41,714 nucleotides of DNA, from the IMG/VR virus record IMGVR_UViG_2537562190_000018. The stretch is one strand, 5' to 3'. Below are positions 6,001 to 12,000 of the stretch, in pieces. The position numbers are program-made. Position 1 is the first letter of the stretch. The number at the start of each line of letters is the position of its first letter. This stretch comes from a virus (Duplodnaviria; Heunggongvirae; Uroviricota; Caudoviricetes).

Positions 6001-9000
6001 GTCAGCTCAATCGTGGCGGGTACCGCAGGTGCATTAATCCTGAACGTGGTGGTGGCCGGTTCCCCCTGCTGGCCATAACTGTTAATCGCCCTGACCGTCA
6101 GGGTGTATTCCCCCGGCGGCAGACCGCTGAAACGGTGCTCTGTATCCGCGGTGATGGCGGTGGTCACCAGACGGCTGTCCTCACCGCTTCCACTGGTCAG
6201 GCGCAGACTGAAGCGCACGCCCTTCACCACCCGCGGCGTGTCCCATTTCGCCTGCGCCAGATACTGGCCGTCAGCTGCGCTCACCTCCACCGTCAGGTGC
6301 TGCACTGCCGGAGGGATGACGCTGTTCAGGGTGCCTGACTGCGGCTCAAAGCTGGCCCCGTTATCCACGATGGCTTCCTTTTCCGGTACGTGCTGCACCG
6401 CCGTGATGGCAAAGGTGCCGTCCGTGTTTTCCCGGATGGAGACACAGCGGAACAGGCGACGACGCAGTGACGGCAGGGAGAGTCCCCATACACCGTATGT
6501 CGCCACACCATCAGGCAGGGTGCTGACCTGTATCCGGTCCGGCGCGGGGTGTGCAGTGATGGCCACGCTCACCGGCTTACCGCTGCCGTTAATCAGGTTC
6601 ACCGTGGCGGCACCTGTCTCCGGCAGGGTCACCTCACGGTCCAGTGTCAGGGTGCGGCTGGCGGCATCGATGGACAGGATACGTCCGCCGGTCATGGTCC
6701 CGGCATAGTCGTTATCACAGATTTCAATAATGTCACCGGGTGTGTGACGCAGCCCCTGTGACCCGAGCGTGAAATCCACCGTCTGCGTTTCCAGCAGTCC
6801 GGTCTTTATCACCCACAGCCCGGCACGGTGGGCCTGACCGCGACTGGTGCAACCGAACGCATCCATCTTCAGCAGGTTGCGCCCGTAGCGCAGTATGGCT
6901 TCCGGGTCTTCCACCAGTTCCGTGGAGGTCTGCCAGCCGTTCTGCGGGTCGGTGTAATTCACCTCCACCGCCGTGTGGCGGTCCTTCAGGGCGCTGAAGC
7001 TGTAGCGAAACCCCACGCCGTTATCATCCACCACCACATCGCTGTTGGTGTACGGCCACACCACATCCGACGGGCGGTCCTGAACGAACGTCAGCGTCTG
7101 GCCGCTCCATACCGGCATACAGCGCATCGCCGAGCAGAAATCACTGAGAACGTCCCACGCCTTACGCTGTTGTGACAGGTACGCATTAAAGGTCATCCGC
7201 GGCTCTGTGCCCCCGAAACCATCCGGGACCGTCTGGTCGCAGTACTGCGCAATGGCATACAGCGCCCATTTGTCCACGTCTGCCGCCCCCAGACGTTTTC
7301 CCATGCCGTAGCGCGGGTGAGTCAGCATGTCCCACAGGCACCAGGCCGGGTTGTTGCTGTATGCCGGTTTCAGGCTGCCGTCCCAGATGCCGCTGTACGT
7401 GCGTTTTTCCGGGTCATAGTTTGACGGTACCTGGATGATGCGACCGCGGATATGGTAGTTCACCGTCATCTGCTGACCGCCAAACTGCTCCGCATCCACC
7501 TGCAGCCCCACAATCGCCGTGTTCGGGTAGCACTGTTTCACATCGATGATTTCGGTGTATGACGACCACAGCGTTCTGTTCTGCAGCTGGTCCGGGGTGC
7601 TGTCCGCCGTCTCCCTGACCATCCGGATGTTAAAGGGGCGGGGAGGCAGATTATCCAGAATCACCGACGCCAGAAACTGCGAGGTGGTCTTGCCGTTAAT
7701 GGTGACATCCTTTTCCGTCACCCAGTTACCGTTACGCTGCAACTGAATCAGCAGTCGGACAGAAGAGGGATTACGGTCGCCCTTTGAGGTGGTCTCCAAC
7801 AGTGACTGCACCCCGAAGGTGACCCGCAGGCGGTCAATGTTCGCGGATGTAATGGTGCGCGTTACCGGCTTTGCCTTCGTCACTTCCACGCCCAGTGCGG
7901 TTTCCGCCCCGGAGGACTCAAAGCCTTCAGGTGGTGTCTGCTCCTGCTCCCCGGCGCGCCAGACCGCGGTCACACCATGTATCACAGGATTACCGTCCGT
8001 GTCCGTCAGCGGGGTTTTGTTCACCAGGATACTCTGCAGCCCCTTCACCGGACCTTCAATCGGCCCTTCACCAATGGCGTCAATCACGCTCATCATCTGC
8101 GTGGATTTGAGATTGTCCTTCGCCTCGCGCGGCGTGTGCGCCTTGCCGCCACCTTTGCCCATTGTCTCACCCTTTACTGTGATAACTGTTACGCACAAAA
8201 ACAACAGGCATCCCGGAGGATGCCTGTATCATGACTGAATAAAAATTCTGAATATCTTCACATTTTCACAAACTGACTGTGGCGCTAATAATTTCTCTGC
8301 GTTAATGTTTTTTGTCGTGACATAAGAATAATTCCTTACACTCAATCTTCGTAACGCTCCCGCAGTTCCTGTCCGTGAGCACTGCGGGATTTTTTCGCTT
8401 TTATGCCTGCCGCCCGATAACCACCATCTTCCCGTCACCGCCTTCATCACGGGTACTGATGTCCTGGGAGATTCGCCGGGAGCCAACCAGCATTTCACCG
8501 TAAGGCACCGGCATCGGGTTCCCCTGGGCAATCATGTTATCCAGCGAGGAAAAGTACGTGTTCTGTCTGCCGTTATCCGTTGCCCTGTATTCCGGTGTTT
8601 TTGGCTTCGGGGCAAGCATCTGTGCCACACCACCCAGTATCATGCTGGCCCCCAGTGAAAACAGCATCGTGGTGGCAGAAAAACCACCGGCTGCCAGGGC
8701 TGAACCCCATAACGCCATTGATGCCCCGGCAGTGAAGAAAGAGCCCACGATGGCTGCCGCCCCCAGCACAATCTGCAGTCCACCCTTTCCGGCCCCGGCC
8801 AGTCGCGGCACAATATGGATGACCGCCCCCTCACCCAGCTGTTCGTGAAGACGGGCGTACACCGCCTCCGGTGCCGTGTCCTCACCGCGAATACGTATCT
8901 GGTACCAGCCTTCGTTCATCTGACGGCGGAATCCCGGCACCTGTAACGACAGCGCCCGGATGGCTTCCGCTGCCGTGTTCACATACAGGCTGAGGCGGCG

Positions 9001-12000
9001 GCCAAATCGTTGCAAATCCCCGTGAAGGCAGATGCGTGCCAGTGGCGGTGACGCCAGGCTGAATGCGTTCGTCGTTGCCATTTTTCGGAATACCTCTCCC
9101 GTTTACTCAGTTGTTCAGGCAGATGGTGAAGCAGCTCACCGTTGCCGCAGTATATGGCGGCATGATTGGCCACCGATGCGCCAAAGCAGCACAGCAGGAT
9201 ATCGCCCGCCTGTGCAGAGGACAGGGGCACCCGGTAAAAGCCGGTGACCGCCATATTGTCCAGGTAAAGGTTCTGACCGTTACGCCACCAGTCATCCTCA
9301 CGCTCAAAATCCGGCATATCAATTCCCGCCAGATGGTAGGCATCCCGGAACAGCGTGTAACAGTCCGTCACCCCGTGCTCAAAGAGCCGTCCTGTCAGAT
9401 GTGGCACACAGCGGAATTTATGAATGTCCCCCCGGCAGACCAGCCACCAGGACAGTGCACTTTTTATCTGCAGCCGCCGGTCGGCCTCGCTCAGCCAGGG
9501 CAGACCACCGGGATGACTGTGGACCAGTGCCACAATCTCCCCCTGCATCTCTGCCCGCAGCCAGTCTTCCGGTGCAATACGAAAATACGCCTCAGGCTCT
9601 GCAGAGATATTCACACACGGCTATACCGCTCACCCTCCGGCGTTCTCACCACGAAGCCACACGACTCCGCAGGCACACACCGCCGGGCATGCGCCAGAAT
9701 CGCTGATTCTGTCTCTGTCATGGATTTACTGCGAAAGTTTATTAATGGAAAGGAAACCGCCAAAATTAGCCACCATGCCGCGCATCTCACACCCGCGCAT
9801 GCACTTGCTGCATCTGTCCTTACGGATATCCGTAAGTGGGGTTGTCGAACTCATCCGCCACCGCAGGACCGTTATACCCGCATTCATCTCCCCGGTAATC
9901 CCACATACAGGTGTTCGCCAGCATGATGCGACCAGGAAACAGCGCCCCGTCCGTCTCCGTCGGTGTTGCCAGCACAAACGAGGCTGTCATGGCCGTCAGC
10001 TCTGACATCTGCTCCACCACCCAGCGGTCGCTCAGCTCCTGCTCCGGGTCCGCTTCCGGATTGCCCGCCACAAAATTCACCGCATCCAGAAAACGGGCAT
10101 ACACCCGGCGGCGGACCACCGTGGCCCCCACCAGGCTCTGCAGGTCCTCCGCCATCCCGGTGACCAGACCAAACAGATTGGACACCGTCAGCGACGGTCT
10201 GGCACTGCTGCCCTTCCCGTTCATCTCAAAACCGCTGCCGTCAATCGGGTATACCTGATATTGCCGCCCCTGCCAGGTGACCGCCTCCCCTTTTTCATTC
10301 AGCTCATTACAGAAAAAATACCGCTCACCGCCCTGCACCGTCAGGTCAATTTCCCAGAGCACCACCCGCGGTGACTGCTCTGATTTAACCGACTCGTTCA
10401 GGCTTTCTTCGTGAATATTCTGCATCAGTTCACCACCTGCTCTATCGTGCAACTGAAATCACTGTACCGGGCATTATCCGTGACACTCCACTCACGGCAC
10501 ACAACCCTCACCGTCCGGTTATGTTTCGGCGGTCGCCACAAAAAGGCACGGTAACCACCATGCCACGATAAAAACTCTTCCAGCCAGCGCCGGGTTGACT
10601 CATCCGTCACCCGGAACACCGCCTGAAACGTCTTCAGTTGAGGATTCAGCCCTGTGGGGCGGCGCTGTTCATAACCGTCACCAAACCGCACCCTCACCAC
10701 CGACGGCTTCTCACTCACCTGCATCCCTTCACGCGGGACCAGATGCAGCGTTTTTATCTCAGCCACTCAGCATTCCTCCGTCACGTCGCATGGACAGCAT
10801 CACCGCCTGCACCCGCTGGTCAATCAGCTGCACAAGACTGCCTGCCGCCTCCGGCCCTATCTGGCCATTAGTCCCGTCATTCTGAATGGCGATATGGTAG
10901 ACCGGGGAATACACCAGACCCGCACTGCCGTTCATACTACCCACCGCGCGCACACCCAGCGAGCCATCCGCCGCCCGCGTCAGAGGCATAATGGCTTCAG
11001 GTCCGGCCTCCCCCATCAGCCCGGCCCCTTTTGCAAAGGCAAAGTACGTGGGCGTATCCACAATACTGTTGCTGTACGCACTCAGGTTTGCCGAGGTATA
11101 CACGCCGCCTTTTGCATTGGCCACCGCTCCGCCCAGCCAGTCACCAATGCTGCCGAGAAATCCTCCCGCACCGGACATACCGTTTGCCGCCGTCTTAATT
11201 CCGTTGACAATCGCGGCATTCATAAGAACTTTTGATATTTCCTGCAGCACTGATGAGGCCCAGCTGCGCCATTCCACTTTATTTCCGTTCAGCATCTCCG
11301 TGATGTTATTCACCATCCCTGAGATACCCTCCGTCGCAAGCTGTGCTGCCTGTGAGGCGTAATCGGACGCATTATCCACCCAGTTACTGAATCCCTCCTG
11401 CAGCCCTTTCTGCCAGTCCGCACGCTGCGCATCCGATTCGGCATAAAAGGCTGCCTGCTCTTTCAGACGTTCACTCAGATACTGTGCATTCTGCGCCAGA
11501 GCCTGTCTGTAAAAATCCTCACTGATATCCCCGGTCTGATACTGAGACTGAAGGTCCGCATCCTTCTGGCGGAAGCTGTCGCGGATCTGCTGCAACTCCC
11601 GCATGCGTTCTCTGGCTCGTTCCCCCTGCCCGTACCCCAGCAGTTCAGCATCATTCGACGCACGCGCAGCCGCATTCTCATTCTTTAGTGTCTCTTCCCG
11701 GGATCGCAACTGTTCCCGGATTTTTTGCTGGTCAATCAGGGCCGCATTACGCAGCAGCTCCTGCTTCTGCATCTCCGTCAGGGTTTTCAGTTCGCCCTGC
11801 GCAGTCTGGTATTTCAGCTTCGCCAGCTCTGTATTCTGCCCCACCAGTGCCAGTTGCTCTTTCTGCTGCTTCAGCAGCCGGGAAAAACTGTCTTCCGCTT
11901 TTTCCGTCTCTGATTTTCCACCCCGGGATTTGGGTTTATTCGCCTCGTTATTGCGCCAGGCTTCCAGGGCATTACTGATATAACGTTGTCTCGCCTCCTG

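Follow-up and report, generated by a model that had tools for sequence, protein, structure and literature searches.

Gene K of the window (the whole 41,714-nt stretch of DNA analysed here) is split by a one-base deficit after codon 33, and the break lies in a 242-nt patch of anomalous sequence that is on record in a single draft assembly. We infer that base calling or assembly, rather than mutation, is the cause. A sequencing or assembly artefact, as opposed to a biological event, is thus our preferred reading of the K break, at a probability of roughly 60%.

The K reading frame is split in two

K is an ordinary lambda-type tail-tip assembly gene of a lambdoid Stx1a prophage and has 247 codons when intact. 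The genes follow the order M, L, K, I, J on the minus strand, with K between L and I and upstream of J, and its product, TAPK, has been predicted to process the ubiquitin-like protein I (PMC1779556). In the window, an ATG at 9721-9719 opens a frame of 36 sense codons on the minus strand (9611-9721; product MTETESAILAHARRCVPAESCGFVVRTPEGERYSRV), which ends at a TGA at 9613-9611. The first-pass annotation had described a well-placed ATG, a lambda-K-like N-terminus terminating after 36 codons and a frameshift after about 33 codons. This description was borne out: the N-terminus is 86% identical to modern lambda K, and a single-base deficit follows codon 33 in a gene that has JAB and NlpC/P60 domains and lies in the order L-K-I-J. 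The same annotation placed the ATG 7 nt past the L stop, which is correct if the first base of the stop is taken as the origin (TAA, 9728-9726; the ATG sits 4 nt past it), but L carries a frameshift of its own, and the stop terminates its C-terminal part. As had also been stated, the N-terminal piece fell just short of the 60-aa threshold of the ORF listing, where it has a 59-aa entry (9611-9790).

The rest of K lies in a different frame, again as first described, and comprises 211 codons (8979-9614, minus strand) from a GTG at 9614 that overlaps the upstream TGA as GTGA. This piece carries the remainder of the JAB/MPN domain and the NlpC/P60 domain, and a TAG at 9623-9621 keeps its frame closed upstream of 9620. 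A continuous K ORF of about 247 codons is therefore absent from the window, the frame being stopped after 36 codons. The K span (9721-8979) measures 743 nt, 1 nt short of the 744 nt of intact K. Adding one base at the frameshift site (9617-9622, minus strand), where all intact relatives have one base more, restored a 247-codon K with both domains. The 36-aa piece is identical to intact K up to Y33, and the lesion falls in codons 34-35, where intact TATATCCCTTGT becomes TATA-GCCGTGT in the window. In codons, TAT ATC CCT TGT of all intact relatives reads TAT A-G CCG TGT with one base lost; an equally good alignment has CCC shortened to CC plus two flanking T-to-G changes. Within 9560-9880, the window sequences at the K and L lesions are TATAGCCGTGT and CACTTACGG, and the intact-type counterparts are TATATCCCTTGT and CACTACGG.

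Pfam matched positions 3-33 of the Prok-JAB profile to the 36-aa piece, and positions 46-113 of that profile together with positions 4-105 of 105 of NLPC_P60 (49.4 bits) to the 211-aa piece. The one-base-repaired K matched the full Prok-JAB profile (54.8 bits, positions 4-113) and NLPC_P60 (48.9 bits), essentially equal to the scores of intact K from E. coli 97-3250 (56.5 and 48.9 bits, respectively). Alignment to lambda K showed that all JAMM residues are present but split, with the first, E19 (AESCG), on the upstream piece and the others, H68-S-H70, S78 and D81 (SEAD), on the downstream piece. The Cys of DCY and the His of NHA in NlpC/P60 are also kept as in lambda. The window copy of K is disrupted or mis-sequenced, and is not an intact TAPK member. 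The gene for the ubiquitin-like tail assembly protein I (8401-8982, minus strand; placed from a relative's annotation, gene calls and the sequence) starts at a GTG that overlaps the K stop as GTGA, and its translation is therefore probably coupled to that of K.

Comparison with known K genes

The nearest intact relative is the Stx1a prophage of E. coli 97-3250, whose K (WP_000194787.1, 'C40 family peptidase', 247 aa) has identical copies in O26/O103-type STEC and in the Stx1a phages LC744181-LC744184. It is the same gene with the neighbours H-M-L-K-I-J, and the DNA over 8900-10500 is identical outside the 242-nt patch. The window K differs from it by Q3E, a change in codon 34, three silent changes and the one-base deficit that splits the ORF, and the window's L-K spacer is 6 nt shorter. 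Lambda K, the TAPK of Iyer, Burroughs and Aravind 2006 (PMC1779556), has the same JAB and NlpC/P60 architecture and the same place between L and I, with 85% amino acid identity to the repaired window K.

The first-pass annotation had proposed an alignment to lambda K and had overlooked that the annotated lambda reference K (J02459/NC_001416; 199 aa) is a poor yardstick that lacks the N-terminus. Its annotated length results from a one-base error in the 1982 sequence, with one base missing in the 5' part (GAGGC-TATTTCC), which is 12 codons further downstream than the lesion in the window. The modern lambda sequence PV340536.1 has a continuous 247-codon K, whereas the window K is discontinuous. 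Moreover, the lambda error can be demonstrated, as independent lambda re-sequences are one base longer there and PV340536.1 has the extra G, whereas the window is known from one sequence. Frameshifted K genes of E. coli prophages are also found in CP028116 (codon 12, CCC to CC) and MCJCHV-1 (codon 97, a shortened G-run; 'frameshifted' in PGAP). Like the window lesion, these are single-base losses in short runs, but they lie at other positions and are isolated, without a substitution cluster.

The K lesion lies in an anomalous patch

Comparison of 8900-10500 (1.6 kb) with the 97-3250 prophage revealed 14 differing alignment columns, all within 9594-9835, while the other 1.36 kb showed zero changes. 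These columns represent 3 indel events and 6 substitutions, every one of the latter a transversion. Nine events were never packed into so short a span in 200,000 uniform simulations. The substitution spectrum was also abnormal, with 0 transitions and 6 transversions in the patch compared to 17 and 3, respectively, in near-identical segments elsewhere in the window (p ~4e-4, hypergeometric on those counts). After repair, 4 of the 6 patch substitutions are synonymous and at the third codon position.

One of the three indel events also frameshifts L, a minor tail protein gene (9726-10425, minus strand; 699 nt when intact). This is the +T at 9835, 114 nt upstream. It leaves an N-terminal part of 201 codons, stopped at 9822-9820, and a C-terminal part (TDIRKDRCSKCMRGC...SQ) that is read in +1 as far as the TAA at 9728-9726. 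Products of 201 aa and 42 aa are on record solely in assembly GCA_000215225.2. Both the frameshift in L and the fact that the K lesion is one of about nine changes in 9594-9835 had gone unnoticed in the first-pass annotation.

We asked how often the patch variants occur in 72 homologous loci. The +T at 9835, the missing base at 9722, G 9715, T 9632 and the frameshifting gap at 9622 were found in none of them. Three more variants were present in just 1 to 3 loci; G 9621 and G 9618 match a TAT CTG CCG allele found in 1 locus, and T 9594 occurs in 3. Of the 72 loci, 60 also have the short L-K spacer and A 9710. A few natural alleles thus carry three of the patch variants, and a true rare allele may account for part of the patch; like the synonymous changes, this counts against an artefact. 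At codons 34-35, the alleles in IMG/VR were ATC CCT (118), CTG CCG (2) and CTG CCT (1). A natural in-frame allele TAT AGC CCG TGT, considered as the parent from which the window would derive by CCC to CC, was not found in IMG/VR.

The K lesion was likewise absent from every K-region copy of 5,426 complete E. coli genomes, and the best match to the 291-nt patch sequence among 10,834 places in these genomes was 96.2%. A 32-mer spanning the K frameshift had no match in GTDB representative genomes or IMG/VR, and the in-frame version of this 32-mer had 114 matches in IMG/VR. Neither the L insertion nor the K junction was found in exact searches of IMG/VR and GTDB representative genomes.

Source of the sequence and other breaks in the prophage

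The window, which carries the Stx1a prophage, comes from contig AEZT02000011.1 (573 kb) of draft assembly GCA_000215225.2, to which positions 1-19614 are 100% identical. A Logan assembly of run SRR063739 differed from this contig over 2,574 nt by 0 substitutions and two T-run lengths, so run lengths are noisy in data from this strain or one nearly identical to it. Contigs of seven other draft assemblies end at window positions 9615-9628. We gave these ends little weight as a repeat boundary because the search that retrieved these contigs used the exact 211-aa product and so favours contigs cut at that point.

Breaks in J, bet and an esterase gene, none of them reported in the first-pass annotation, are all private to one draft assembly. 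J, which encodes the tail tip/host specificity protein (4691-8162, minus strand), is frameshifted by the loss of one GA from (GA)4 at ~4946, giving products of 1076 aa and 85 aa. Outside this assembly there is no record of the 1076-aa product or of the truncated esterase (603 aa) and Bet (203 aa) proteins. The bet and esterase breaks lie at single-base runs, the private indels in such runs of the window being T7 to T6, T6 to T5 and A3 to A2, and the J break lies in the GA repeat. We also considered a +C at 25764, which splits the antirepressor gene, as a private error and rejected this, since 16 independent contigs encode the same 132-aa product and the +C is therefore a natural allele.

An IS1203-like element (32566-33875), flanked by Q and DUF2528, stands in place of ~11 kb of early genes, which may reflect either a true deletion or a collapse of the assembly across two IS copies. 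If this replacement is real, it suggests that the prophage was already defective and free to decay. The 10 kb of flanking chromosome contains intact tor and cbp genes without a frameshift, where only ~1 would be expected at the prophage's rate, so that this stretch says little about how often the assembly is frameshifted.

Artefact or mutation

If the break is an artefact, 9594-9835 would be a stretch of poor consensus in the draft assembly of a genome that probably has several near-identical lambdoid prophages. Such a stretch would have gathered single-base indels of the run-length type together with miscalled bases, leaving L and K both broken. This reading fits a lesion that is private to a single assembly and clusters with anomalous calls of an unnatural substitution spectrum, and the one-base error in K of lambda reference J02459 provides a precedent. 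The other account to be taken seriously, although we consider it the less probable one, is that K, L, J, bet and the esterase gene acquired real, recent inactivating mutations in a decaying, non-inducible Stx1a prophage. Three observations count against an artefact and for such a pseudogene: the (GA)4 to (GA)3 change in J is dinucleotide-repeat slippage, more typical of real mutation than of a run-length miscall; the unbroken tor and cbp core genes suggest that the assembly is not uniformly poor; and the IS1203-like element with the loss of ~11 kb of early genes suggests a prophage that was perhaps already defective. In addition, K frameshifts are known from finished genomes (CP028116 and MCJCHV-1), and Iyer et al. 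2006 (PMC1779556) noted degenerate K versions in integrated prophages. However, real decay would have to place nine changes inside 242 nt and none in the other 1.36 kb, all substitutions being transversions, in contrast to natural differences in other parts of the window, and five of the variants having no counterpart in the 72 loci. Furthermore, five genes with private indels yet very few substitutions are the reverse of normal neutral decay. Were the pseudogene real, neither the 36-aa peptide nor a fragment made by reinitiation would function, and GTGA-coupled translation of I would fall.

Other biological explanations appear far less probable. The patch could be the real scar of localized error-prone synthesis, for example by an SOS polymerase at break repair in an inducible Stx prophage, with L and K lost in one step and a residual NlpC/P60 fragment of K made by termination and reinitiation at GUGA; we judge this very unlikely. 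We find it slightly harder still to credit that K is functionally recoded or split. Recoding would require a shift of frame within 9620-9611 that yields full-length K, for instance if tRNA-Val re-paired at +2 on GTGTGTG while UGA occupied the A site, and a split would require termination at UGA and reinitiation at the overlapping GUG (GUGA) to yield an NlpC/P60 fragment without the JAMM glutamate. The stop-start overlap is indeed arranged as at the K/I junction, and NlpC/P60-only K versions are mentioned in PMC1779556. However, the first 115 nt of K contain no X XXY YYZ slippery heptamer, the two frames overlap by just 10 nt (9620-9611), and the relatives examined (97-3250 and modern lambda) have a continuous K, with other K frameshifts at other codons; on these grounds programmed -1 or +2 frameshifting was rejected. 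The GTGTGTG run is present in all intact relatives too and so did not evolve for recoding, GGAGG lies ~19 nt upstream of the GTG, too distant for a ribosome-binding site, L directly upstream is also broken, and the lineage normally has an intact K. Least probable of all is gene conversion, in which another prophage with a divergent, unsampled K allele would have donated the tract together with its frameshifts. Some patch variants do occur in rare natural alleles, and the spacer and A 9710 are common, but the 72 loci, the 5,426 complete genomes, IMG/VR and a phage collection yielded no donor of more than 97% identity. The five variants found in none of the loci also speak against conversion, and the donor itself would have to be a double pseudogene. 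Re-sequencing of 9600-9640, as first proposed, is apt, because our results suggest that the quality of the sequence is at fault.

Implications

Under either reading, artefact or dead gene, the finding is ordinary. If the breaks are artefacts, frameshift calls in draft assembly GCA_000215225.2 are not to be taken as biology. For comparison with 'lambda K', the 247-aa form is the appropriate one, because the 199-aa K of the textbook lambda reference stems from a one-base error. Defective Stx prophages of such a kind are commonplace. If the lesions are real, this Stx1a prophage would lack functional L, K and J and would form neither infectious tailed particles nor tail tips, which would bear on the spread of the strain's toxin genes.

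The K gene is split between two reading frames

The tail genes on the minus strand follow the order H, M, L, K, I, J, as in lambda, with H at 14001-10759 and M at 10766-10425. K starts at an ATG at 9721, 4 nt past the TAA at 9728-9726, and opens MTETESAILAHARRCVPAESCGFVVRTPEGERYSRV. From this ATG, 36 sense codons are read up to a TGA at 9613-9611, and the rest of the gene follows on the same strand in a different frame as a 211-codon ORF (9614-8979). The two frames overlap by only 10 nt, because a TAG at 9623-9621 closes the downstream frame. Pfam placed positions 3-33 of the Prok-JAB profile on the 36-codon piece, and positions 46-113 together with a complete NLPC_P60 domain on the 211-aa piece. 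One base added at the lesion gave a 247-aa K with Pfam scores like those of an intact relative, and this repaired K is 85% identical to recently sequenced lambda K. The ORFs, the Pfam matches and the one-base repair thus bear out, in every detail that matters, the first-pass annotation, which had K frameshifted after about 33 codons and its remainder in another frame. K corresponds to the TAPK protein of Iyer, Burroughs and Aravind, which combines JAB and NlpC/P60 domains and whose predicted role is the processing of I, a ubiquitin-like protein; degenerate TAPK versions in integrated prophages have been remarked upon (PMC1779556).

The window is a Stx1a-type lambdoid prophage. It encodes a RIP-family toxin A subunit (30641-31597), Q (32095-32529) and an integrase (40641-41714), and the tor operon adjoins it. 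A product search found no record of the 36-aa K piece, and the exact 211-aa product in 11 contigs. One of these is AEZT02000011.1, a 573-kb contig of the draft assembly GCA_000215225.2, which is identical to the window across 1-19614, including the region around the lesion, and whose gene calls have L, K and J broken likewise.

The lesion lies in a patch of rare, clustered changes

Of the relatives with an intact K, the Stx1a prophage of E. coli 97-3250 is the nearest, and its K is an uninterrupted 744-nt gene annotated as 'C40 family peptidase'. Aligned with this prophage, window 8900-10500 differed in 14 columns, all of them within 9594-9835, and was otherwise identical. The changes in this patch are a one-base deficit in K codons 34-35, an extra T in L at 9835, an L-K spacer 6 nt shorter in the window, and six substitutions, all transversions. 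Nine events in so short a span arose in 0 of 200,000 simulations with uniform placement. Other near-identical segments of the window showed 17 transitions and 3 transversions against their closest relatives, and the contrast with the patch has a probability of ~4e-4 by our own hypergeometric estimate. The indels may each be interpreted as a short run gaining or losing a base: CCC to CC in K, T to TT in L and AA to A in the spacer.

Most of these variants are rare or absent elsewhere. Of 72 independent homologous loci, none had the T insertion of L, the loss of the spacer base, G9715, T9632 or the gap that shifts the K frame; G9621 and G9618 were found in one locus each, and T9594 in three. The best identity to the 291-nt patch sequence was 96.2% across 5,426 complete E. 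coli genomes, and nothing exceeded 95.6% among phage records. The 32-mer spanning the frameshift had no match in GTDB representative genomes or in IMG/VR; the in-frame version of the junction occurred 114 times in IMG/VR.

Other genes in the window are broken

L, a minor tail protein gene on the minus strand (9726-10425), carries an extra T at 9835 (CACTACGG to CACTTACGG) that shifts the frame after codon 201 and leaves the cysteine-rich C-terminus (CSKC...C) in the +1 frame. In J, also on the minus strand (4691-8162), a (GA)4 run at ~4946 is one GA unit shorter (CATGAGAGAGAGCAT to CATGAGAGAGCAT), which gives 1076-aa and 85-aa products. Private run-length changes are found in a SASA-family esterase gene (28073, T6 to T5, cut to 603 aa), in an intergenic run (28005, T7 to T6) and in bet (35411, A3 to A2, split into 155-aa and 203-aa ORFs). 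The 201-aa and 42-aa L products and the 1076-aa, 603-aa and 203-aa products of J, the esterase gene and bet are each recorded in GCA_000215225.2 only. A 2,574-nt match between the Logan assembly of SRR063739 and contig AEZT02000011.1 showed 0 substitutions and two T-run length differences, which indicates run-length noise in data of the same or a near-identical strain.

Relative to 2013C-3492, a +C at 25764 breaks the antirepressor-like gene (25758-26156) into products of 132 aa and 56 aa. This change was rejected as a private error and is a natural allele, because the same 132-aa product is present in 16 independent contigs. At 16984-19244, a 454-aa portal ORF (Phage_portal) overlaps a 299-aa ORF downstream of it that has no clear family. 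PGAP calls the corresponding region 'portal protein, frameshifted' in 97-3250 as well as in 2013C-3492, so the arrangement recurs across genomes and could be a natural form instead of a lesion. The other tail genes are packed tightly, and a gap of ~240 nt between I and J (8163-8400) is kept in relatives: in one comparison locus (L001) it runs from the end of I at 5106 to the start of J at 5345, and in CP028116 a 72-aa ORF is called within the gap.

Origin of the K break

Nothing about the K split points to recoding or to a novel arrangement: K is a known gene, either mis-sequenced or recently inactivated, and the finding, accurate as a description, is biologically ordinary. Programmed frameshifting was rejected, as the first 115 nt of K contain no X XXY YYZ heptamer, the GTGTGTG at the junction is present in all intact relatives too, the relatives examined (97-3250 and the lambda record PV340536.1) read straight through K, and other K breaks lie elsewhere (codon 12 in CP028116, codon 97 in MCJCHV-1). 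Termination-reinitiation is conceivable, with the upstream stop overlapping a GTG as GTGA. A K fragment made in this way would be missing the JAMM residue Glu19, and the gene directly upstream, L, is broken as well. Functional readings of the split are highly improbable.

We favour a sequencing or assembly artefact as the cause of the break, with a probability of about 0.6. An artefact would be in keeping with a draft assembly, with tightly clustered, all-transversion changes private to that assembly, with K, L and spacer indels that each fit a short-run length change, and with the further private run-length indels nearby. A precedent exists in lambda. The NC_001416 sequence (13300-15600) lacks one G within the 5' portion of K (at GAGGC-TATTTCC), which accounts for the 199-aa K, with MSPEDW as its start, annotated in J02459/NC_001416. 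The G is present in PV340536.1, whose K has 247 codons and starts 5 nt after the L stop, and other independent lambda or lambda-hybrid records, such as KT232076.1, LC730321.1, OM418625-OM418627 and DE3, are also one base longer here. The same kind of artefact is thus documented in K, 12 codons from the window lesion. In the draft contig BDIM01000087.1 (5164-6131), the K segment matching window 9406-9628 is duplicated over 222 nt, so that a 111-aa JAB ORF precedes the 211-aa ORF; this duplication could be a wrong join at the same position.

A real, recent pseudogene is a possible but less probable origin. It would agree with the J lesion, a dinucleotide slippage, and with the 10 kb of flanking chromosome, where the intact tor and cbp genes contain 0 frameshifts; this count weighs little because only ~1 would be expected. 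Two finished genomes, CP028116 and MCJCHV-1, have also independently lost one base from a short C or G run within K, so K repeatedly appears as a pseudogene in E. coli prophages, with the break at varying positions. Finally, an IS3-family, IS1203/IS629-like element (32566-33875) lies between Q and the DUF2528/cIII side, where the related Stx1a prophage of 2013C-3492 carries an early region of ~11 kb (nin genes, O, P, cII, cro, cI, N) that the window lacks. If this is true, the prophage would already be defective. The two IS junctions were seen together in no complete E. coli genome, so the site could have arisen by IS-mediated deletion private to this prophage or through collapse of IS copies in the assembly.

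Possible consequences for tail assembly

If the lesions are real, L would lack its C-terminal cysteines; lambda gpL reportedly coordinates an iron-sulfur cluster through cysteines of this kind, a result credited to Tam et al. in 2013. In K, the catalytic Glu would be cut off from the remainder of the JAB site. I, which starts at a GTG overlapping the K stop, would be translated less, and J would be short of 81 C-terminal residues. With these losses, the phage would assemble no tail tip.
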